Of a DNA stretch of 64,000 nucleotides, positions 9,394 through 20,035 are shown in pieces. The translations under genes were made by a program, and so were the position numbers. Numbering within the stretch: the stretch's first letter is position 1; the number at the start of each line of letters is the position of its first letter. The notes beneath the pieces were generated by a model, which was not told the origin of the DNA, ran no database searches, and saw only the letters and a program-made list of their open reading frames with translations. Source of the stretch: a virus (lineage: Duplodnaviria; Caudoviricetes); the IMG/VR virus record IMGVR_UViG_3300049182_000044, positions 64,001 to 128,000 of that record; one strand, 5' to 3'.

Positions 9394-9776
9394 CCATAAA
9401 AGAAATTGATCTGTCGGAGCGTGTCGTAGGCTCTTCTACAGTAGCTGCCATCCTTCCTCCAATGTCGAACGACTGGGGCGAGCGTGAGCCGACCCGTGTT
9501 AAGCGCATCGCCAAGCTGTACACTCTCGCTGAGTATGCTGAGAACTTCACGCTCGAAGAGATTCCACGCAAGTTCAAGCATCGTACCCGGCGCAAAGCCA
9601 AGTGGTTCTTCGGCAAACGTATTCACCTAGTCGGCAGCGCAAAGCAAATGCGGTGCGTGTTCGGCAAACCCAGCCCGAGTTCGTTTGGTGCCACAGCGGA
9701 TGCCCTGTGTCAAGCGCCGGGCAACACAGTCATGGTCGTGCGTGTTCCTGCTGAGGAGAATGGGAATGCAGATTGA
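9384..9776 (+). CDS. Hypothetical protein
   Basis: Start MSVTIKE overlapping previous stop. Confidence 0.55.
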   Translation: MSVTIKEIDLSERVVGSSTVAAILPPMSNDWGEREPTRVKRIAKLYTLAEYAENFTLEEIPRKFKHRTRRKAKWFFGKRIHLVGSAKQMRCVFGKPSPSSFGATADALCQAPGNTVMVVRVPAEENGNAD

Positions 9777-10032
9777 TTTCGAGAAGCTGAAAAGCATCGC
9801 AATCGTTCACCGCGGTCTACGTCTCGATGATGGTAATCAGTGGGTCGAAATCGCAGCCTCCAATAAGCAACTGGGTAAGCTCGCTGCTGCACACGGGCGT
9901 ATGACTGCAAAAGGCGCACCGCCTGAAGCTAAGACTGAATTTCAGCAGCTGCTGACCAATATCGTCGTGAAATTTAACGGCACAGTGCCAGATTGGTTAC
10001 AACAAAATGTTCAACGTCCCCAAGCTGCGTGA
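9766..10032 (+). CDS. Hypothetical protein
   Basis: Start MQIDFEK after GAGGAG. Confidence 0.55.
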   Translation: MQIDFEKLKSIAIVHRGLRLDDGNQWVEIAASNKQLGKLAAAHGRMTAKGAPPEAKTEFQQLLTNIVVKFNGTVPDWLQQNVQRPQAA

Positions 10033-10573
10033 GCGCAGTGGCCGTTATCACATAACGGAATCGAAGTTCGAGAACACGGACTACTGCCTTCACTTCCTGA
10101 AGAATCATGGTCCTGACATTCAGTGCGTGAATGTTTCAGATGTCCCGGATTGCTACGAGTACAAGCTGCCTTTCAGGGATACGCTTCATGTTAGCCCACA
10201 AGCTTACGTAGATCATTTAGAGAAGTTCTTCACGTACCTGTGCCTCGAGACTTACGCTATGGCGGTCGTCAACTGCGCAGGCAATCCTCTAGATGGTGTG
10301 ACTCGCCTAGTGTTCAAGGACATGATGGAGAAACGCCTGCAAGCGCATGTGCGTCTGCAGGACAATAGCCGTGCGTTCCTCCTCAATCGCTTTGAAGTCG
10401 TGTGCGACGAACGTAACAATCCGGTCAACGTGATCGACAACAATGACATAGTGATATCCATAATGTACTTCCCATTCCTTGGTGTGGGTGGATATATTCT
10501 GACAATCGCTAAACATCGAGAATCTCTGATTGGAGAGAAACATGACGCAGCTGAACTTCATTCGGTCGTATAA
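10007..10573 (+). CDS. Protein containing a tail-sheath C-terminal-like domain
   Basis: GNPLDGVTR...FEVVCDERNNP...ID.NDIVISI..P aligns by eye with FNPNDFVLR...FQVVCDESNNP of the sheath at 43587. Confidence 0.55.
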   Translation: MFNVPKLRERSGRYHITESKFENTDYCLHFLKNHGPDIQCVNVSDVPDCYEYKLPFRDTLHVSPQAYVDHLEKFFTYLCLETYAMAVVNCAGNPLDGVTRLVFKDMMEKRLQAHVRLQDNSRAFLLNRFEVVCDERNNPVNVIDNNDIVISIMYFPFLGVGGYILTIAKHRESLIGEKHDAAELHSVV

Positions 10574-11312
10574 CGGCCTCGATATTCCCAAAGAGGGTCC
10601 GTACAGCGACGAAACGCTCTATCAGATCGATATGCAGATGCGTTGCAAGATGGTCGATGACGCAATGGGCTACTACAGGACGCCTGGACGTTTCTATCAT
10701 GCTCAGCCGCATCCAATCCGCATGTTGAACAACCATGTTGACTACTGGCACTCTCATCCGACCGATGCACTCTTCCTTTCTATCTTGATGCACGACGCGG
10801 TGTACGTACCCGGTCAATCGCCTGCCTCGGAAGAGATGAGTATGCATCTCGTACCTGTCATGTACCACCGTGTTGTGGGTACCCGCATTCCAATCGAACT
10901 GTGCGACAATGTGTTCTTGTACATTCGCTGGACAATGCCGAAGTACCATGTGCGTCACAACACCATGCTCGACCCAGAAGGCCCAATCGCTCGACTACTT
11001 GATCTCGACCTAGCTGGAATGAGCGACGATTGGAATGACTTCATCGAAACGCAGCAGAAGATCGAGCGAGAGTTTGCACATCTAGGTGCATCGGATAAAC
11101 TGAAGATCGACGCTGCGAACTTCTTACACAGCTTCGTGCGTAAGGGCTATGTGTACTATACCCAGGCATTTCGCCCCGACAACGAGAAAGCCCTGCGCAA
11201 TTTGAAAGCGTTAGTTCAGGCTGTACTCGTTCACCGTGAATTTTCATGGGGCTGGCTGGCCGCTAAGAATCCAGACGTACTCGAACAGGAATACGGAAAC
11301 TCGAATCTGTAA
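10542..11312 (+). CDS. HD-superfamily metal-dependent phosphohydrolase (COG4339-like)
   Basis: RFYHAQPH, LMHDAVYVPG...SEEMS, LLDLDLAGM..DW...QQKIEREF motifs. Confidence 0.75.
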   Translation: MTQLNFIRSYNGLDIPKEGPYSDETLYQIDMQMRCKMVDDAMGYYRTPGRFYHAQPHPIRMLNNHVDYWHSHPTDALFLSILMHDAVYVPGQSPASEEMSMHLVPVMYHRVVGTRIPIELCDNVFLYIRWTMPKYHVRHNTMLDPEGPIARLLDLDLAGMSDDWNDFIETQQKIEREFAHLGASDKLKIDAANFLHSFVRKGYVYYTQAFRPDNEKALRNLKALVQAVLVHREFSWGWLAAKNPDVLEQEYGNSNL

Positions 11313-11343
11313 AGAACAGGCATTATTGAACAGGGAGAACATA

Positions 11344-11514
11344 ATGTTTTCTAAGCAGCGACTCCAATATCATCAGACGGTGCTGAACGAAATCGAACAG
11401 ATGCGTGTGGATGCAGTATCTCGCGCAAACGCAATGAAGTCGCAGAAGTCCAACAAGGACAACAACTGGGCGCGCAACAAAGTTGCCTCACTTATCACTG
11501 CTGTGAAGTCATAG
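11344..11514 (+). CDS. Small hypothetical protein (MFSKQRLQY...)
   Basis: GGGAG RBS, follows CTGTAAA motif. Confidence 0.5.
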   Translation: MFSKQRLQYHQTVLNEIEQMRVDAVSRANAMKSQKSNKDNNWARNKVASLITAVKS

Positions 11515-11516
11515 TC

Positions 11517-11747
11517 ATGGCAGAAGTCGAACGTGAAGTCCGGACCTTCCATGTTGAACGCCAGTGCGATGTAGGTGCCTGTTCAGGAGTCATGCGCAAG
11601 GATCGCGATCAAACTACCCAGCTTAAGAAGTGGAGCGAAGGCGGATATGTCGGTGAACCTCTGCGAGTACATACGTGCAATGCATGTGGTGCGAAAGCTG
11701 AGTACGACGTTGATTATCCGAAATTGGTCTATAGATTTACCACGTAA
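11517..11747 (+). CDS. Small Zn-ribbon-like protein
   Basis: CDVGAC and HTCNAC pairs. Confidence 0.55.
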   Translation: MAEVEREVRTFHVERQCDVGACSGVMRKDRDQTTQLKKWSEGGYVGEPLRVHTCNACGAKAEYDVDYPKLVYRFTT

Positions 11748-11947
11748 CGGTTACGTTGATGCAGCCCGCGAGGGTTGATCGCCTGAGTAATAGTTCTTCA
11801 AGCGTAGAAAAAGAACTTGCTTCCTTTATCTTGTGGTGCCACGAACCCCTCAGATAGAGTGTATGTCATTGACGGCCGGCCTTACATTCTAGACGCCGGT
11901 ACACTTACGCAGACGGGTTGTATCAGCGTATTCATTAAGGAAAGAAC

Positions 11948-12154
11948 ATGGTCACAAAAGCAATCGCCTACATCGACAAGATCGCGCCTGAACATGAAAG
12001 AATTAGCTGCTCGGAACTGAATGGCGATAAAAGCGCACCGAACGCACGCTACAAGGCGGATGACTTCGGCGGTTGTTATCGCTGCACGTTGATGCAGGTG
12101 CACAATCTTGCAATGTCCGGAGAAGAGGCGGAAGATGACGACGATGACACTTGA
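11948..12154 (+). CDS. Small Cys-containing protein
   Basis: AAGGA RBS; SC...GGCYRC. Confidence 0.55.
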   Translation: MVTKAIAYIDKIAPEHERISCSELNGDKSAPNARYKADDFGGCYRCTLMQVHNLAMSGEEAEDDDDDT

Positions 12155-12326
12155 AGCAGCACTGGTGGTTCTTGACCAGGACAACACCTCAGCCTACATT
12201 TGCCGCGAACAGGACAACACTCCCACGGTGTTCGGCACTGGTGAAACGGCCTGCGTTGCTATTGACGGCAACTTCAACATCGCACAACTGAAAGCGTTAA
12301 TCACCGTGATCGAAAGCACTCAATGA
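12135..12326 (+). CDS. Small hypothetical protein (start uncertain)
   Basis: Coupled to neighbours. Confidence 0.45.
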   Translation: MTTMTLEAALVVLDQDNTSAYICREQDNTPTVFGTGETACVAIDGNFNIAQLKALITVIESTQ

Positions 12327-12562
12327 GCAGCGAGGACCTGGAGAAGGCAATGCAGGAGCTAGGTGACGCGCAGAAGGAAGGCGTCAACCTTATACTGGAT
12401 AGTATTCGACGCCGTGCGTTGTATCCTACATTGGCCTCTATGGAACCGCGCACTCGCGAGATAATGCTGAAGTACGCAAGCATCCCGATAAATGAGACGA
12501 ATCAGGAGATCGAACACCTACTTCGTCACATTGACATGCTGAAGAAAGAAATTCGCAAATGA
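12323..12562 (+). CDS. Hypothetical protein
   Basis: ATGA overlaps. Confidence 0.6.
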   Translation: MSSEDLEKAMQELGDAQKEGVNLILDSIRRRALYPTLASMEPRTREIMLKYASIPINETNQEIEHLLRHIDMLKKEIRK

Positions 12563-13248
12563 AAGAATTTTCAAACACCGGAGTGTATTTGTCGTCTGGT
12601 TCCGCGTGTGCGAAGGCACTAGCAGAAGGCAACGTGAAACTTGCAAGCCAAATCTTCAGTCAGACTAGCGTAGACTTCAAAAAGCTGATTCCTAGCCGTT
12701 ATGATCGCGCATGGCTCATGGCGAAATCGAAGGGTGAAGATCCTCCTGCATCTCCACCGCCATTGGTGCTAGGCAGTTTGCGTGCTGACGTTGAACAGCT
12801 TCGCCTTCTCGCGTATATGCTGTACTGCAATCGAGTACCGTATGACTGCTGGCTGCCGTTACCTCCTCCGCCGCAGACCGACGCATTCATCGAGCCTGGA
12901 TCAGACGCAGAGAAAGCTGAAATCGCTCAGCTCTTGTATCAGATTCGCGAGCACTATTGCCTCATGGCTTTCAAACTCGCCGACGATCAATCTACCAACG
13001 CTGAACGCGAGCGTGTACGTCAACACACGGTCTTCAAACAGCTTCACTGGTATATGCCGGAACATACCTGGAAGGACGTTGTGAAGATGAAGGTGCCTGA
13101 GGGCATGGATCATCAAGACTACATCTTCTTGATTAAGAATTGTGAGGGGCACACTTCGCAAGATCGAAAACACCTCATGTTCGTAGGCCACGAGAACATG
13201 AAACGCTTTGAGCAGTACTTCACCAACAAACAAAGGGGAAACGCATGA
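12559..13248 (+). CDS. Hypothetical protein
   Basis: 229-aa coupled ORF. Confidence 0.7.
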
Positions 13249-13529
13249 ACACCGCAACTCAAGAAGCACAAGATAGCACCAACGGCACTATCACCCATCG
13301 CGTCAAGCGCGTGATCGCGCAACAGCTGGGTGTATCTGAACTGGATGTGAAGCCAGACAGCAACTTCGTCAATGACCTCGGCGCTGACAGCCTCGACGGC
13401 GTTGAACTGCTGATGGCCATCGAAGACGAGTTCGAGTTCGAGATCAGCGACGAAGACGGCGAACAGTTGACTACGCCGCAAGCCTACATCGACTTCATCG
13501 CCAAGAACAAGCCAGAACTCGCTAAATAA
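13245..13529 (+). CDS. acpP: Acyl carrier protein
   Basis: [12 protein letters not shown]...[31 protein letters not shown]; phosphopantetheine Ser in DSL motif. Confidence 0.92.
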
Positions 13530-13555
13530 ACAGCAACCACAACAACAAGGGGAAT

Positions 13556-13864
13556 ATGATGGAAACGACGAACAACACGGAAGTGTTTGACATAAATTCA
13601 CCGCAGTACGATCCGAATATGCTGCTCGACGGCATTCTCGAACAGTTGAATCTGAAGAACGATGCTGTGCTGTCCCGCGCCCTTGAGGTAGCCCCTCCGG
13701 TGTTGAGCAAGATTCGTCACCGTCGTATCCCCGTCGGCCCGATGATGCTGATCCGTATGCACGAACTCACCGGGTCGTCGATTCAGGAATTGCGTTCGCG
13801 CATGGGTGATCGCCGTGAGAAGTTCTCGCTGCTTGGCCTGGCAACTGACAAACGAGCCAAGTAA
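13556..13864 (+). CDS. Small HTH-like DNA-binding protein of a family typical of Oxalobacteraceae
   Basis: YDPNMLLD...LNLKNDAVLSRALEVAPPVLSKIRHRRIPVG..MLIRMHELT..SI.ELR..MGDRR.KF; family recognised from memory. Confidence 0.65.
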   Translation: MMETTNNTEVFDINSPQYDPNMLLDGILEQLNLKNDAVLSRALEVAPPVLSKIRHRRIPVGPMMLIRMHELTGSSIQELRSRMGDRREKFSLLGLATDKRAK

Positions 13865-13865
13865 C

Positions 13866-14144
13866 ATGCTTTCGGTGCACCTGAAACGATTTTATCGGTT
13901 CATCCTTAAAGAGACCGAGGACACAACTTCTCATGTCAATTCGGCTTGCACGGCCATCTGTGAGCCGAAGTGGCTGGCGGTCGATAAGAATGGCAAGTGC
14001 TATGCCTTCTCAGTCAAGCCTATTCTCGAAGGTAATTTCTGGATGAACCAGGACAAGAACAAAGTTTTCGTGATGACGATGCCTCAGGGTACCGATTACG
14101 ATTACTCCCAATCACTTCACGAAATAGGAAGAAGAATAGCGTGA
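13866..14144 (+). CDS. Hypothetical protein
   Basis: ATG 1 nt after previous stop. Confidence 0.6.
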   Translation: MLSVHLKRFYRFILKETEDTTSHVNSACTAICEPKWLAVDKNGKCYAFSVKPILEGNFWMNQDKNKVFVMTMPQGTDYDYSQSLHEIGRRIA

Positions 14145-14596
14145 CGCTCCTCGAACAAATCAAAGCAGATCAACTGCAGGCGCGCAAAGACCGGCTGACG
14201 TTGAAAGCAACCCTGCTCACCACGTTGATCGGTGAAGCGGTAATGAAAGGCAAAAACGACGGCAACCGTGAATCGACGGATGACGAAGTGGTCGAGGTCG
14301 TCAAGAAGTTCATCAAGAACATCAACGATACGATCAAGTTTCTGACTGAAGGCGGCGCCACAGAAACTGACGAACGGCTCATTACTGTAAAGAACGAGCG
14401 TCAGATACTCGAAGCGTACCTGCCACAGCAGTTGACAGAAGACCAAATCGTCGGCTTCCTGAAAGCTTCGGGTCTGCAAACGGCTGGTATCAACAAAGGC
14501 ATTTGCATGAAGTACCTGAAAGAGAACTTCGCCGGTCGTTATGACGGCAAGGTCGCCTCTGCAGCCGTTGACCGTTTCATCAGTACCGGTCAGTAA
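14141..14596 (+). CDS. GatB/YqeY domain protein
   Basis: MTLLEQIKADQLQARK...LTTLIGE..MKGKNDGNRE.TDDEVVEVVKKFIKN...E.QILEAYLPQQLTEDQI. Confidence 0.85.
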   Translation: MTLLEQIKADQLQARKDRLTLKATLLTTLIGEAVMKGKNDGNRESTDDEVVEVVKKFIKNINDTIKFLTEGGATETDERLITVKNERQILEAYLPQQLTEDQIVGFLKASGLQTAGINKGICMKYLKENFAGRYDGKVASAAVDRFISTGQ

Positions 14597-14645
14597 CTGT
14601 AAAGCAGTATTCGTAGCAAACGTTCCAACTAACAAGAACAAGGAG

Positions 14646-14816
14646 ATGCTCGGATTACTTTCATATCTGGGTGATTTCTTTAGGAGCGGATGGTTTTGTC
14701 GTATTGAGTTGTCCGAACCGCTTCAGCGGCCTAGGAACGAGAGCGCGCCTAGCAGCGCAATTAGACCCAAACGCCTAAATCGTGAAGCCACGTCCACGTG
14801 TTACAGGGATACGTAA
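14646..14816 (+). CDS. 56-aa peptide with hydrophobic N terminus
   Basis: AAGGAG RBS, downstream of CTGTAAA at 14597. Confidence 0.4.
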   Translation: MLGLLSYLGDFFRSGWFCRIELSEPLQRPRNESAPSSAIRPKRLNREATSTCYRDT

Positions 14817-14819
14817 GGA

Positions 14820-15090
14820 CACCTAAAACGGGAATTACCCATCCCATTACAATTTGCCGAAACACCCAAGACACAATGTCTTATTAGAGTGAAGCAGTCA
14901 ACATGCACGACGCCATAAGCAAAGCTTTCACCTAGCTTTTGGGCTTGCAGGACGAGTGAGGTACTCCTTTGAAATAGCTATTGATTATAGCCGTAAGCCG
15001 GGGCCACACATACGCCAGTCAACGATGCCGTCTTCGCGGGATGGGTCGGGGGAGTCGATTCCTGAGTGGGCGGTTTATGGATGTAATCAA
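14820..15090 (+). ncRNA. Candidate structured ncRNA
   Basis: ACCCATCCC (14837-45) pairs GGGATGGGT (15038-46), flanked by GGGAATT/GATTCCT; several internal hairpins; no credible ORF. Confidence 0.35.
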
Positions 15091-15105
15091 CAAGAAAAGA
15101 CAATC

Positions 15106-15708
15106 ATGCTTAAATGGCTAGATAAGATCCTTGGACGGAATAACGAGGAAGGTTCACTGAAAAGTATCACGTTCGATCCAGTTGAATTGATTCAGTTCCG
15201 CGTTGATCGTCGTGTGTTGACAGGCGATCCTGAAGTGACAGTCTACGTCCCGCAATATCGTACTAGGGTCTTTTACGAGTCTAACACACGCCTCAAGGTA
15301 GCCGAAGGTGGATACTTCAGGCGTGCGGTGTTGACCTCTCAACCACCTGAAAACAAGTGGACACCTTGGCAGGACTTCCAAGCGACAGATGATTGCGGTT
15401 GCCCGCTGCATTTCTCGCTCACTGCATACAGTGCAACGCGCACGGTGAAGACCGAAAACTGTAAAAACGTGGTACAGGCGTTGCGGCCAATTCGCATCAT
15501 CGAAACAGAAGGTTCGATGGGTATGGATAAGAACACCTGGGTCGGGAACATCTTGCGCAACGAAACACGTAAGGTGTACTGCGGCAGCGGTGACGGCGTG
15601 GAAGAAGAGTTCTATGTCGTGCGTACCCTTGGTGGCATGAAAGAGATGTGGGTGGCTGTCTCCGCTACTACTCGCGCCGAAGACGGTGTGATCGAGTATC
15701 GGTATTAG
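15106..15708 (+). CDS. Hypothetical protein (start MLKWLDK)
   Basis: A-rich leader before ATG 15106; the upstream extension lies in the structured region. Confidence 0.65.
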   Translation: MLKWLDKILGRNNEEGSLKSITFDPVELIQFRVDRRVLTGDPEVTVYVPQYRTRVFYESNTRLKVAEGGYFRRAVLTSQPPENKWTPWQDFQATDDCGCPLHFSLTAYSATRTVKTENCKNVVQALRPIRIIETEGSMGMDKNTWVGNILRNETRKVYCGSGDGVEEEFYVVRTLGGMKEMWVAVSATTRAEDGVIEYRY

Positions 15709-15747
15709 TTCTGTAAATCGTAATTAGGTAGTTCATTTTAGTACCGT

Positions 15748-15823
15748 GGGGCGTTAACTCAGTTGGTAGAGTAGCGGACTCTTAATCCGTTTGTCGTAAG
15801 TTCGATCCTTACACGCCCTACCA
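15748..15823 (+). tRNA. tRNA-Lys(CTT)
   Basis: 76-nt cloverleaf, GCGGA-CT-CTT-AA-TCCGT anticodon arm, TTCGATC T loop, encoded CCA. Confidence 0.95.
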
Positions 15824-15881
15824 AAGTTTCCATAGTAGTGCAGATGCGCGAAAGCGAGTTCTTACTTCTGCATTACTCACC

Positions 15882-15957
15882 GGGTCGTTAGCTCAGTCGG
15901 TAGAGCAGCGGACTTTTAATCCGTTGGTCGCGTGTTCGAGTCACGCACGGCCTACCA
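15882..15957 (+). tRNA. tRNA-Lys(TTT)
   Basis: 76-nt cloverleaf, GCGGA-CT-TTT-AA-TCCGT, encoded CCA. Confidence 0.95.
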
Positions 15958-16111
15958 AGTTTGTCGTAGTAAAGAGTTGTAACTGCCATGTGGGTGGGTA
16001 CCTGCATGTTGTCGTAAGAATGGCCAAAAAGCCGGACCTCAATTTGTGCGAGTCGAAAGGCTCTCACCAGTGTAGACAGTCCTTACAGGGGATCGCAGTT
16101 AGCTGTTACGT

Positions 16112-16187
16112 GGGGCGTTAGCTCAGTTGGGAGAGCAGCGAACTTTTAATCCGTTGGTCGCTGGTTCAAACCCAGCACGCCCTACCA
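16112..16187 (+). tRNA. tRNA-Lys(TTT), variant with A30:C40 mismatch
   Basis: 76-nt cloverleaf, GCGAA-CT-TTT-AA-TCCGT, TTCAAAC T loop, encoded CCA. Confidence 0.85.
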
Positions 16188-16205
16188 AATTTTAGAAAGT
16201 GCGTT

Positions 16206-16409
16206 ATGTCCAATGAGTACAAGATTGCAACCTACAGCTTCGCTGTAGCAGAAGCAGTACGCGTGGTCTTCAATCACGAAAAGATTCCGTTTGAAAGCGC
16301 AGTCGGTGCGGGTTCGGTGATCGTCATCCTTGTACCCATGGAGCATAAGGCTACCGCACAGAACGTGCTACGTCAATGGAAGTCCGCCATAGCGCAGATT
16401 CAGATTTAA
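16206..16409 (+). CDS. Small hypothetical protein between RNA genes
   Basis: 67-aa ORF filling the gap between tRNA and tRNA-like RNA. Confidence 0.55.
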   Translation: MSNEYKIATYSFAVAEAVRVVFNHEKIPFESAVGAGSVIVILVPMEHKATAQNVLRQWKSAIAQIQI

Positions 16410-16410
16410 C

Positions 16411-16539
16411 GCGGGTATCGTCGAAGGTATGGCTATCGTAGTAAAGGCGTACAGTCATGTGCGTCTACATGGGGCAACTTAACAGTTGCAGCTACGACGT
16501 TCCCATGTTTCGTGAGTTCAAGTCTCACTACCCGCACCA
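16411..16539 (+). ncRNA. tRNA-shaped RNA A (129 nt), anticodon arm replaced by a structured insert
   Basis: Acceptor GCGGGTA/TACCCGC plus A-CCA, D arm GTCG-AAGGTA-TGGC, T arm GTGAG-TTCAAGT-CTCAC. Confidence 0.7.
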
Positions 16540-16654
16540 CTCCCTTATAAGAGAAAAAGAAATGGGAATCAAAGGCTACGTGATTGCCTGTGCAATCGCT
16601 TCATTGCTCGTCGCCGTGATCGCCACATCTAATTTGTTGACGATGCAGTAACAA

Positions 16655-17325
16655 CAGTGTGTTTAACACCCCGTCTAAGTGGAAAACGTTGCATTAAGCG
16701 TAGAAACGAACTTAGGCATTGAGCAAGCCAAGTGTTCTTGGACAAGACAAGGGATACTCTTTTGGTTCGCAGGTACCTGTGGACATACAAGTCTGAAGAG
16801 AAACGAAGTCCTGGGTAGGCCGCCCAGGCTAAGTCTAACTTGAACCGAGTGATTGCCTGATGTGGCAGCAATCTGTCACGGGGTGCTAAACACATTTCAA
16901 AGAATACGTTCTGCGAGAGATCAATACACAGTGAGTTCGGAGGTGCGGCGGGAACCATGCCTCGGAGCGGACAACAGTCTGTGCAGCAGAACGTTATATG
17001 CGTATGTATTGACGTAGGCAGTTAGACGCTGGCGCGCGATGATGGTAACTGGCAACGGTTACTTGGGCCATGCGAGACAAAACGATCACAGACCGTTACT
17101 GCTTACTTCAATATGTATTCAGTGTGTTTATGACGCACCACATTTGCGCGCACTTGCTAGAGACAGGTGTGTTCGCCCAGGTCGAAAGGCCCTCCTGCTT
17201 AACTAGCGGGCGGTTGTATAGGCTGCGAGGGCGTTTAGCAAGCAGTACGGCGTTCTGTTAGCCTGTAAGGGTGTGGGCCGGGTAGTGAAATAGCTACGAA
17301 CGTGGGGCGCCATAAATACATTGAG
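16655..17325 (+). ncRNA. Candidate large structured ncRNA, copy 1 (boundaries approximate)
   Basis: No ORF with RBS; long nested helices (GTGTTTA..CACCCCGT/ACGGGGTG..TAAACAC; ACGTTCTGC/GCAGAACGT; GTAGGCAGT/ACTGCTTAC; GNRA loops); core shared with 19590-20035. Confidence 0.6.
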
Positions 17326-17333
17326 TTTATTCT

Positions 17334-17506
17334 GGCGGGGTATGCATATTGGAGTAGCTGCGATTGACCGAACCGTGGAGTCCTAGGGTCGGTGAGGTCG
17401 TCGTGGTCGAGTTGGGAACAAGCACTTTGGGAGGTCGGGTAACGTGCTCGATTGAACATTGTGACTCCGACTCGGCGTGAAAGTTCGATCCTTTCCCCTG
17501 CTGCCA
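17334..17506 (+). ncRNA. tRNA-shaped RNA B (173 nt) with greatly extended anticodon-position and variable arms
   Basis: Acceptor GGCGGGG/CCCTGCT (two G:U) plus G-CCA, T arm GAAAG-TTCGATC-CTTTC, two long internal helices. Confidence 0.6.
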
Positions 17507-17587
17507 ACGATTTCGGGACTCGTAGTTTATTCTTCGTCGAGCCGCGTTCAGCATGGGTGACCAGGTCACGTAAGTGCTGATGTTAGT

Positions 17588-17675
17588 CGGGGCGAGGGAG
17601 TAAGAACGTGTTGACTGTGATGCGCTATGCTAAATGGTCAATAAGGTGCAGGTTGAAACCCTGTCGGCCCGACCA
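17588..17675 (+). ncRNA. Degenerate tRNA-like element C (Pro-like acceptor); 5' end uncertain, could be 17514
   Basis: 3' end GCAGG-TTGAAAC-CCTGT-CGGCCCG-A-CCA; 5' CGGGGCG pairs with one G:G mismatch; no canonical anticodon arm. Confidence 0.35.
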
Positions 17676-17690
17676 ATTTCAAGGAATACC

Positions 17691-18083
17691 ATGAGTAACG
17701 CCACACCCCGATATGCAACGGTAGACGCGAACAAGATGATTATCACAGATGGTAATCATGGCGGTTATCGCACTGGCTTCTGCGCGGTCTGCGAAGCGAG
17801 CGGTTGGTTGGATGTACCGAAAGGTGCGTCGAACGGGATAGTTCATAAACCAGACTGCGTAGTTGGCATTGCACTGAGCGCACTTCAAGAGATGAAAGTG
17901 CTCGACCTGGTGAAGATGTCAAATTTGACCTACTCACTGCCATCCAACAATTTCGCCAATCAGCCGTTTATAATGGCTGATGCATTGAAACGCAGCGATC
18001 TGGAAATGGTCATGAGCTGCCGTGACTTTGACCGCATTGAAGCAGACCAAGAACATACTGTGCTTATCTGGTACAAGCAGTAA
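17691..18083 (+). CDS. Hypothetical protein (CxxC...HxxxC)
   Basis: AAGGA RBS before ATG 17691; FCAVCE...HKPDC. Confidence 0.6.
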   Translation: MSNATPRYATVDANKMIITDGNHGGYRTGFCAVCEASGWLDVPKGASNGIVHKPDCVVGIALSALQEMKVLDLVKMSNLTYSLPSNNFANQPFIMADALKRSDLEMVMSCRDFDRIEADQEHTVLIWYKQ

Positions 18084-18088
18084 GCACG

Positions 18089-18185
18089 AATCGAACAAGC
18101 GCATCGCGTATCTGGATGCCTCAAAAGTCACGGCTGAATGTGTAAGCTTAGTTAATCCGTGCCAGCCGGTGCGCTTGTTTCGATT
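18089..18185 (+). ncRNA. Candidate structured RNA (long closing helix)
   Basis: AATCGAACAAGCGCATCG (18089-106) pairs CGGTGCGCTTGTTTCGATT (18167-85). Confidence 0.4.
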
Positions 18186-18191
18186 AAATTA

Positions 18192-18332
18192 GTCTGTGCT
18201 CCAGCGAAGATTAACTGGAACGAGAACGTTGGAACAACTCAGCTTTCCTAGGATCGGTGAGCCGACGTCCAGACCGGTAGTCCTTAATCCCCATACTCTC
18301 GTAGGGCGAGCCGGATGTTGGAGTACAGACCA
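18192..18332 (+). ncRNA. Candidate multi-junction RNA with 14-bp closing helix ending ACCA
   Basis: GTCTGTGCTCCAGC/GTTGGAGTACAGAC; internal GATTAA/TTAATC, CTGGA/TCCAG, TCGG-TGAG-CCGA. Confidence 0.45.
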
Positions 18333-18349
18333 ATTTAGAGGAGCTTCAA

Positions 18350-18508
18350 ATGAAACTGAAAGAAATGTTTTCAGTCGCCTGGTGGAAGAAGTACGTGGGC
18401 TTCCAATTCACGCGCTATGATTACAGCGGCAGCGATGGTCGCCGTGTCACAGACTGGATGTTGCATCTGGGCTTTTTCGCAATCACGAAGCATCGTATTG
18501 CGCGGTAA
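18350..18508 (+). CDS. 52-aa hypothetical peptide
   Basis: Not in ORF track; GAGGAG RBS; MKLKEMFSVAWWKKYVGFQFTRYDYSGSDGRRVTDWMLHLGFFAITKHRIAR*. Confidence 0.5.
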   Translation: MKLKEMFSVAWWKKYVGFQFTRYDYSGSDGRRVTDWMLHLGFFAITKHRIAR

Positions 18509-18689
18509 GGATTCCACAACGGCCCTAGTCGGGGCGGATCGTAGTTCAGGGGAAGAACAACCGCCGTAAGGTGGGAAGTCGCCGAATCATCTAAGGTCGA
18601 TCCTTTGCGTTGTGGTGCAGTCTTCAGTGCTAAGTCGCCAAGTCGTTGAAGAAGCTTAATAACCTTTTTCGACAACTTAGGAGGCGAGC

Positions 18690-19181
18690 ATGGGAGCAGC
18701 AGTAATTCAGCTGAAGTGCGCACGTTGCAAAGCGAAGTTTGAAAAGAAACTAGCTGAGTACACGTATCAATTGCGCAAGGCAGGCGTTTTAGACAAGCCA
18801 TTCTTTTGCAGCAGGGCATGCGGTCAAGCGTATTCAGGCGAGACGTTTCAAGCGTTCACCGATATTCGCGCAATCGCTAAAAGCCTCCGCAATCGAGAGT
18901 GGCCTTGATATGAGAAGTTAGACCGTTATCTAAAATCAACGGGGCTTACGTACCGATTCGAGTTCTTCTTCAAGAAGCACCGATTCGTGTACGACTTGGC
19001 GATAAAGGAACTGCGGTTGATATTCGAGTTCGATGAAGCGTATCACTACGATGAAACCGTCAGGCTTGTAGACAGAGCGAAGGACAAGCTCGCGAAGTCG
19101 AAAGGCTACACTGTGATTCGTGTGCCTTGTTCCAACGGTGCGGTTCTGTCACCGAAACTGATAAAGAAGCATTTGAAGTAG
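18690..19181 (+). pseudogene. Zn-finger plus Vsr/DUF559-like endonuclease with one in-frame TGA (18906-08)
   Basis: CARC...FFCSRAC N terminus; the same frame continues past TGA into YEKLD...FEFFF...YDLAIKELRLIFEFDEAYHY...RAKDKLAKSKGYTVIRV. Confidence 0.7.
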
Positions 19182-19189
19182 TACAGAAT

Positions 19190-19580
19190 TTATGGTTGTG
19201 TGCGTAGCGTAATCTACGCGAGACGTTTGCGTGAAGGCATGGCGGACGGGAGTTCGATTCTCCCCACCTCCACCACCAGCACTTTGAACACCCGGTGATG
19301 GCCGGGAGTTTGACCATGTAGGGTAACGGCCCCATAGCAGCCGCTACAGGACCAGTTGCGATACAACTGCAAAGCGCTGTTGATGGGGGTGACCTGGTTT
19401 CGACGGCGTGAGATAGCAAGAACTACAACTCAGCAGGCGATCGCTGACTCTTCGGAGTGAATCGAAGCAAAAATAGTAAATGCAAACGACTCGCATTTCC
19501 TGCAAGCTGCAAACGCCTAATTAAGCGTTTCACTTCAGGCTAAGTGACTACGGGGTCTGTTGACATAGCGCTACGGCGCG
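19190..19580 (+). ncRNA. ssrA: Circularly permuted (two-piece) tmRNA
   Basis: Acceptor piece ends GGAC-GGGAG-TTCGATT-CTCCC-CACCTCC-A-CCA (19275); coding piece starts GGGGGTG (19385), G3:U70 present; tag GCA AAC GAC...TAA at 19482-19520 = ANDSHFLQAANA; outer boundaries approximate. Confidence 0.9.
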
Positions 19581-19589
19581 CCGTCTTCG

Positions 19590-20035
19590 TGTACGTAGTT
19601 AGTCCGGCCACTCCACCTTTCGCCGATAATGACGCGACTGCGCGTGGGTGTCTTAGTCAGCGCGTAAGCGCACCGAAGCCGGACTACCCAGTTTCAAACC
19701 TCCAAGGTCAGAGAGCACTACACAGTGAGTTCGGTCTAAACTTTAACCATTTAGTCACCGAGAGACGATTTCCGTTATAGCAATCTGGATCGGACAACAG
19801 CCTGTGCAGCCAAAGGAGGGCCCAACGTAAAACGTTCTTCATCGAGCGTTTTACGTTGGTGACGGCAAAGCCGTTAAGGTGCGGACATAGAGCTATTGCA
19901 GCTTCAGCGTGGGTACGAACACTAATCGCATGGAGGAACCCCACCGGCGATGAAGTCGTAGGATGTGAAAGCCCGCTACGCTGTCACCAACATTCTCAAA
20001 TCGCGACCTAAGGTGGTCCCGATCATTCAACTTTA
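19590..20035 (+). ncRNA. Candidate large structured ncRNA, copy 2 (boundaries approximate)
   Basis: TAGTCCGGC/GCCGGACTA helix, 16-bp hairpin CCAACGTAAAACGTTC/GAGCGTTTTACGTTGG, core shared with copy 1. Confidence 0.6.

Follow-up and report, generated by a model that had tools for sequence, protein, structure and literature searches.

A candidate gene for an oversized tRNA-framed RNA in the tRNA island of a soil jumbo myophage

Introduction

Phage tRNA clusters that make stable, oversized RNAs with tRNA ends have been known since the 1970s. The closest known kind to the element analysed here is the species 1 RNA of phage T4 (RNAC, 139 nt), which belongs together with species 2 RNA (RNAD) to the stable RNAs of the T4 tRNA cluster, and the function of both is listed as unknown in reviews (PMC3014915, PMC9697503). 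The species 1 gene lies in the tRNA cluster on the strand of the tRNAs, its product is larger than a tRNA, and a canonical T arm is followed by a stem that closes with the 5′-end, with two extra hairpins located between. Other described RNAs share single aspects of this design. Class II tRNAs (Ser, Leu, Tyr) have a length of 85-95 nt and carry a helical variable arm between the anticodon and T arms. The eukaryotic mascRNA is the 61-nt tRNA-like end of MALAT1, to which CCA is added post-transcriptionally; it is positioned directly 3′ of a long structured non-coding RNA, and RNase P makes both ends. Among huge phages, Lak megaphages contain tRNA-like genes that are too long and could be parsed only via introns, which have been called "enigmatic" (PMC6784885), and intron-less alleles define the insert in these cases.

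The DNA analysed here (the window) has a length of 64,000 nt and corresponds to bases 64001-128000 of a 281,566-bp virus record originating from a soil metagenome. A preliminary description of the window had proposed two of its RNAs, here named RNA A and RNA B, as members of a class of non-decoding tRNA mimics. RNA B agrees with the T4 species 1 RNA, as far as the genes alone can be compared, in its position within a tRNA cluster on the tRNA strand, in its size above that of a tRNA and in its closure by a T arm and a terminal stem. The closing stem of the T4 RNA contains mismatches and no CCA is encoded there, whereas the 7-bp acceptor of RNA B is clean and is accompanied by U8-A9, a D-like loop with GG and an encoded CCA. 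The arms of RNA B, unlike those of the T4 RNA, take the places of the anticodon and variable arms in a class II cloverleaf. With class II tRNAs it shares the location of a helical variable arm and, with tRNA-Ser, the G73; however, it comprises 173 nt, its variable arm consists of 10-11 bp plus 49 nt, and its anticodon-position arm of 15 bp ends in a 12-nt loop without the U33/R37 arrangement. The comparison with mascRNA is an analogy based on the location next to a long structured RNA and on possible shared processing by RNase P; RNA B differs by its excessive size, its encoded CCA and a cleavage that is a prediction. In contrast to the Lak cases, the intron parse of RNA B is at chance level and no intron-less allele accompanies it. 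RNA B is counted here among the little-understood stable RNAs that phage tRNA clusters make, as a variant of them and a cleaner case than most, with a perfect tRNA top half, an encoded CCA and two large arms at defined positions, although it is a candidate from a single orphan sequence rather than a demonstration.

Materials and methods

RNA genes were called in the complete record with ARAGORN and Rfam. Additionally, both strands of the 281,566-bp genome (563 kb) were scanned for tRNA-like shells, which were defined as a 7-bp acceptor and a 5-bp T stem with T-loop consensus and 60-400 nt in between. As control for the intron-containing calls of ARAGORN, the shell of the element was retained and its interior was shuffled (n = 500). 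A covariance model, termed R1, was built from RNA B alone and was applied to the window and to related phages, among them 23 IMG/VR relatives that were found by tail-sheath alignment.

Results

Genomic context

The phage is placed as a jumbo myophage of the PaBG (Baikalvirus) group on the basis of its tail sheath, which shares 49% identity with the sheath of Pseudomonas phage PaBG, 47% with that of NCTB and 44% with that of Lu11. Only four RNA genes were called genome-wide by ARAGORN and Rfam, namely three tRNA-Lys genes and one tmRNA (Table 1). RNA B follows the three tRNA-Lys genes at a distance of 1.1 kb, in the same orientation, within an ORF-poor island, and every gene in its neighbourhood is encoded on the plus strand. 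The gene caller of an independent assembly reported no gene in 16652-17690, and the DNA assembly that is the probable source of the record gave a single identical contig with zero variants over the RNA B region. For the ORF 3′ of RNA B, the start is most likely ATG 17691 and not 17634; the resulting ORF 17691-18083 encodes 130 aa, is preceded by AAGGAA ahead of the ATG and agrees in its start with the call of the independent assembly. With the start at 17691, a third tRNA-like element (17588-17675) would fall outside the coding sequence.

Table 1. Coordinates of RNA B, its parts and the neighbouring features in the window
Feature	Position	Strand	Description and source
YqeY gene	14141-14596		upstream of the ORF-poor RNA stretch
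tRNA-Lys genes (three)	15748, 15882, 16112	+	ARAGORN/Rfam and shell scan
RNA A	16411-16539	+	ends with ACCA; shell scan
Direct repeat, copy 1 (AGTTTATTCT)	17324-17333	+	ends at position -1 of RNA B
RNA B, whole element	17334-17506	+	173 nt; sequence reading, fold and shell scan
Acceptor stem, 5′ strand (positions 1-7)	17334-17340	+	7/7 pairs with 17496-17502
U8-A9 and D-like arm	17341-17342 (U8-A9); arm through 17356	+	3-bp stem, 8-nt loop
Arm 1, anticodon-arm position	17357-17404	+	15 bp in four helices, 12-nt terminal loop
Arm 2, variable-arm position	17406-17476	+	10-11 bp stem carrying a folded 49-nt subdomain
T arm	17479-17495	+	5-bp stem, G53-C61, loop TTCGATC
Acceptor stem, 3′ strand, with G73 and encoded CCA	17496-17506	+	G73 at 17503, CCA at 17504-17506
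Direct repeat, copy 2 (AGTTTATTCT)	17524-17533	+	starts 18 nt past the CCA end
tmRNA, two-piece, circularly permuted	19183-19611 (also given as 19159-19611)		ARAGORN/Rfam

The genuine tmRNA is located 1.7 kb downstream of RNA B. It scored 98.5 bits with RF04321 and 71 bits with the betaproteobacterial tmRNA model, which is under the 84-bit cut-off of that family; the alignment to the latter model hints at a betaproteobacterial host or donor. A gene for SmpB was not found in the phage genome. The pentamer AGTTT directly follows the CCA of two tRNA-Lys genes and was observed 7 times in the island versus about 3 expected occurrences, an enrichment too weak for a motif.

The tRNA-like frame of RNA B

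Sequence reading and the shell scan confirmed the acceptor, the canonical T arm and the G-CCA end that had been claimed for RNA B. Two of the acceptor pairs are G-U pairs (G1-U72 and G4-U69), and the ensemble pairing probability amounts to 0.86 for the acceptor and 0.66 for the T stem. In the D-like loop, raw positions 18-19 are occupied by GG; the loop is held by three weak pairs (ensemble probability 0.34), for which ARAGORN gives an alternative stem of 2-3 bp with an 11-nt loop. Measured against the canonical tRNA family (RF00005), RNA B possesses the 7-bp acceptor, the discriminator, the CCA and the T arm consensus.

The shell scan yielded 15 matches, of which five carry CCA, namely the three tRNA-Lys genes, RNA A and RNA B. 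All five are located on the plus strand within one 1.8-kb stretch (15748-17506), while the 10 matches without CCA are scattered elsewhere in the genome. Since a random shell match has a 1/64 chance of carrying CCA, about 0.16 CCA-bearing matches are expected genome-wide in comparison to the five observed.

The loop of the T arm is identical to that of the neighbouring tRNA-Lys(CTT), and the stem differs by one pair that is changed on both sides with compensation. Moreover, the single-sequence model R1 scored tRNA-Lys(CTT) with 21.6 bits (E = 4e-4). Because of this near-identity of the T arm and the score for that tRNA, the comparison points to an origin of RNA B from a local tRNA gene with retention of the pairing.

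Interior arms

The minimum-free-energy fold of RNA B is the cloverleaf described earlier, and this fold was retained in the presence of 60-nt flanks. Arm 1 is composed of helices of 2, 6, 5 and 2 bp with ensemble probabilities of 0.76-0.92. The length of about 15 bp given for this arm in the preliminary description stands, but the terminal loop has 12 nt in the fold in place of the 14 nt given there, or 4 nt with three extra pairs. The G/GA internal loop of arm 1 can be drawn as tandem G-A in the modelled structure. In arm 2, the stem (ensemble probability 0.99) has 10 bp in the fold and reaches the 11 bp reported before only if G83-U133 is counted, whereas the subdomain, announced with about 50 nt, is correct at 49 nt.

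Arm 2 is the most strongly structured part of the interior. It folds (17406-17477) with -31.5 kcal/mol versus -19.5 ± 2.9 kcal/mol for dinucleotide shuffles, which corresponds to z = -4.2 (0/500 shuffles) and, in a second run, to z = -4.4 (0/200). For arm 1 the folding z is -2.3 (reached by 16 of 500 shuffles), and for both arms together it is -3.0 (2/500). The whole element has a folding z of just -1.3 to -1.5, because the helices of the shell are ordinary.

A contact between the two arms had been proposed on the basis of GGAGTC (17377-17382) and GACTCC (17463-17468). The complementarity is present, but as evidence the contact was rejected: a 6-nt complement occurs in 7% of shuffles, and the pairing would use three bases of the 11-bp variable stem, so that it clashes with this stem. 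A second internal "5′ acceptor" at 17433-17439, suggested by the Rfam alignment with 6/7 pairs, was within chance. Complementarity of RNA B to other parts of the island amounted to a single 9-mer, with 2.4 expected.

RNA A

In its fold, RNA A consists of an acceptor, a D-like region, a 9-bp hairpin at the anticodon position, a branched 7-bp arm at the variable position, a T arm and NCCA. This nested cloverleaf has a folding z of -3.8 to -4.2, and a pseudoknot is unnecessary. RNA A has the same overall plan as RNA B, and the island therefore contains two look-alikes 800 nt apart. The earlier assignment of both RNAs to one class of mimics holds with respect to shape but not to sequence, as only generic tRNA positions match between the two. 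By default settings of ARAGORN, RNA A is called as a tRNA-Cys with a 45-nt intron; the same call was obtained with 185 of 500 shuffled interiors (37%), and RNA A carries A73. CysRS requires U73.

Flanking repeats and the upstream large RNA

The 10-mer AGTTTATTCT is present in exactly two copies in the 281-kb genome, and these bracket RNA B plus 17 nt. By a rough estimate, the probability that the exact 10-mer recurs within a few hundred bases by chance is about 1e-3. The repeats may represent a processing motif, a promoter motif or the scar of the insertion of a 190-bp cassette.

Upstream of RNA B, an ORF-free structured block ("large RNA copy 1") ends 9 nt before G17334, in agreement with the earlier statement that RNA B starts just after this RNA. 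On account of this short distance, cleavage by RNase P between 17333 and 17334 would define the 3′-end of the upstream RNA. Furthermore, a 23-nt inverted repeat (20/23) connects the 3′-end of RNA A (16525-16547) with 17266-17288, which is located 46 nt upstream of RNA B. The RNA A side of this repeat comprises the 3′ strand of the T stem, the 3′ strand of the acceptor, ACCA and the trailer. Pairing of the two segments could close the large RNA of about 720 nt, or it could compete with the tRNA fold of RNA A.

Relatives of RNA B

On its own window, R1 detected RNA B itself (226 bits), tRNA-Lys(CTT) and the tRNA-like part of the tmRNA and nothing else. The covariance search suggested in the preliminary description revealed no homologue among the cultured relatives PaBG, NCTB, Lu11 and HRDY3 or among the 23 IMG/VR relatives, one of which has 70% sheath identity. 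R1 likewise gave no match with the YqeY-linked contigs L033-L035 and, in a search run one way with the RNA B model against T4, none with the T4 locus (L032). Searches at the nucleotide level were performed with blastn of 16200-19700 and of RNA B against 50,697 GenBank phage records, which returned only T-arm-level or chance matches, with an exact 30-mer in IMG/VR and with a 21-mer in 185,579 bacterial genomes, and neither of the latter two was found. A 15-mer of the core of the neighbouring large RNA had 14 matches in IMG/VR, all of which were attributed to chance because a second motif was absent from all 14. RNA B is, by these comparisons, a sequence orphan among the collections searched.

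For neither of the ORFs on the two sides (149 aa downstream, 250 aa upstream) did the route via synteny give relatives. A search for the Dda helicase in metagenomes resulted only in a match of 24% identity, and the record MW202489 (Dda with 41% identity) belongs to a podophage of 40 kb without relationship to the phage studied here. In the five nearest relatives (G001-G005), the flanking Dda helicase and YqeY are both absent; because of this absence the RNA B island is placed in an accessory region, and it could be young or decaying.

Other oversized tRNA-like elements were found in phages of the lineage. The annotated "tRNA-Ala(tgc)" of PaBG (NC_022096 122295-122388; L030:7296-7389) has 94 nt, and its 11-bp anticodon arm is interrupted by two small internal loops of purines. 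The loop of this arm is without U33, the discriminator is U and CCA is absent; the gene gives the impression of a further non-standard tRNA-like gene rather than of an alanine decoder. A 133-nt element in the IMG/VR record G014 (L097:6869-7004), located 630 nt upstream of a phage tRNA-Met, combines a canonical T arm with a closing stem of 7 bp and has three hairpins in its interior, and no CCA is encoded. The oversized tRNA-like kind recurs in the PaBG lineage, while the sequence does not.

As a separate observation, the 1.5-kb ORF-free gap before the tRNAs of PaBG contains, at about 6560-6640 of L030, CTGATGAG ... GAAAC with complementary flanking ends, which by eye resembles a hammerhead core; Rfam reported no ribozyme there at the gathering threshold.

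Discussion

RNA B as a non-decoding RNA

RNA B is very probably non-decoding, as had been claimed from the outset, because it has no 5-bp stem carrying a 7-nt anticodon loop. A canonical anticodon arm with U33 and purine 37 in a molecule of 70-95 nt overall is not present in this 173-nt element with its 15-bp arm. ARAGORN made no call on RNA B with default settings, and the Rfam tRNA model RF00005 reached 15.8 bits, with an internal sub-alignment, versus a cut-off of 29 bits. Two other identities were ruled out. A tmRNA identity is contradicted by C-G at position 3-70 in place of G-U (the G-U pair is at 4-69), and no tmRNA model matched the element; for a YrlA-type Y RNA, there was neither a YrlA match on the element nor a TROVE gene in the genome. 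Searches of the phage genome likewise revealed no CCA-adding enzyme, Rnl, RtcB, class IIa synthetase core or reverse transcriptase.

With modest confidence, RNA B is regarded here as a genuine, unannotated gene whose structured product is tRNA-framed and non-decoding. According to the proposed mechanism, the island would be transcribed as long precursors, in which RNase P would recognise the stack of acceptor and T arm together with the RCCA and cut between U17333 and G17334. With this single cut, RNA B would gain its 5′-end and the structured RNA of about 670 nt before it would gain its 3′-end. At the other end, an endonuclease would cut in the A/U-rich trailer, and exonuclease trimming would then halt at the encoded CCA. 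For bacterial RNase P, a stack of acceptor and T arm that carries RCCA and has U at -1 makes a good substrate, and encoded CCA ends arise by endonuclease cuts and exonuclease trimming; since these features and this route are established, 17334 and 17506 are the expected mature ends. The same punctuation logic of RNase P is found in spacer tRNAs in operons, in the T4 tRNA cluster and in the MALAT1-mascRNA pair. The tRNA frame would confer stability and access to tRNA-binding proteins, and the two expanded arms would be the working part.

Alternative explanations

Instead of a functional RNA, the locus might represent a decaying tRNA gene, i.e. a former tRNA in a fast-changing accessory region that was broken by insertions and perhaps is still transcribed and trimmed, with no function. 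This would suit an orphan that is missing from 27 related genomes and records, whose entire flank is absent in the nearest relatives, and which is accompanied by perfect 10-bp direct repeats resembling a recombination or insertion scar and by a homing-endonuclease-like fragment inside the island. However, all diagnostic positions of the shell are intact, the encoded CCA included, and the degree of structure in the inserted parts far exceeds chance, which is unexpected under decay. The T stem, compared with that of the likely parent, contains a compensated change, and RNA A with the same plan lies alongside. Decay is considered unlikely.

The possibility of an interrupted decoder arises from ARAGORN itself, which assigns a tRNA-Ser(tga) to precisely 17334-17506 once introns are allowed and the threshold is set to 90%. 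According to this parse, a class II tRNA-Ser(UGA) is interrupted in its anticodon loop by an 86-nt insert (17366-17451), and splicing would lead to an 87-nt tRNA with G73. The spliced form is coherent for serine, as U33, A37 and G73 are all present, the 3-bp D stem closes a loop of 11 nt and the variable hairpin is short, and introns of unknown type do occur in megaphage tRNA genes (PMC6784885). Against it, a full-length intron-tRNA call was also obtained for 160 of 500 shuffled interiors (32%), 18 of them for Ser, so that the parse itself was rejected, and the spliced sequence is not called by ARAGORN at the default threshold. Two of the five pairs of the anticodon stem are G-U pairs and its probability in the unspliced ensemble is 0.00, the insertion point 32/33 is non-canonical, and the strong stem of arm 2 pairs bases of the "intron" with bases of the "exon". 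With 86 nt the insert is below the size of group I and group II introns and belongs to no known intron class, bulge-helix-bulge included, no match was found by Rfam at E values up to 10, ribozymes included, and the ligases Rnl and RtcB are missing from the phage. An interrupted decoder is, on balance, quite improbable.

A further alternative concerns the ends of the molecule. The region 16655-17506 might be one uncleaved RNA, in which the tRNA-like end serves as a 3′ cap by means of its CCA, protection against exonucleases and possible charging, in the manner of plant-virus tRNA-like structures. Only 9 nt separate the structured block from G17334, and the 23-nt inverted repeat suggests a large closed domain that ends beside RNA B. 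Cleavage would be expected in any bacterium, though, because RNA B with its 7-bp acceptor including the 5′ strand, U at -1 and RCCA corresponds to a standard RNase P substrate, whereas the acceptors of plant-virus tRNA-like structures form by a pseudoknot without a free 5′ strand. We regard an uncleaved 3′ domain as doubtful, on a par with the interrupted tRNA-Ser. Finally, chance resemblance or a protein-coding sequence on the reverse strand, where ORFs of 80 and 90 aa overlap RNA B, is highly improbable in view of the five clustered CCA-bearing shell matches versus about 0.16 expected, the lack of a PHROG family match for either ORF and the location of all neighbouring genes on the plus strand.

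Possible function

If RNA B is a real gene for a tRNA-framed RNA, its use can only be guessed at; no partner enzymes pointing to such a use were found in the phage genome. Our guess is that RNA B mimics a tRNA and thereby occupies a host factor that binds tRNAs, or diverts it; a defence enzyme that cleaves tRNAs or a synthetase would be an example of such a factor. This reading is favoured because the only decoders of the island are three tRNA-Lys genes. tRNA-Lys is the classic target of anticodon nucleases. SerRS reads the variable arm and the acceptor and not the anticodon, and G73 together with the long variable arm of RNA B fits recognition by SerRS, with charging being conjectural here.

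In a more far-reaching version, which we rate as rather unlikely, RNA B and RNA A would act as counter-defence or translation-hijack RNAs. They would be chargeable, perhaps seryl-accepting, or protein-trapping mimics, the arms of which neutralise a host factor directed against tRNA (an anticodon nuclease or a synthetase-linked sensor), and they would form one "translation protection" cassette together with the three tRNA-Lys genes and the tmRNA. If true, they would constitute a functionally new class of viral tRNA mimic, and the 10-bp repeats would mark a mobile cassette. More generally, RNAs like RNA B would add an RNA-based layer to the conflict between phage and host over tRNA if they are decoys or charged non-ribosomal substrates. 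If they are merely processing handles, they would account for the cutting of long non-coding precursors by the phage.

With respect to the setting of such islands, a different phage (JGI contig Ga0590113_0000068, L034) was observed to carry YqeY directly before a 10-kb tRNA island (9500-19100). This island contains 14 tRNAs, a TROVE (Ro60-like) gene and an 85-nt long-armed tRNA-Asn(GUU) with G73. The location of YqeY beside phage RNA islands may be a recurring arrangement.
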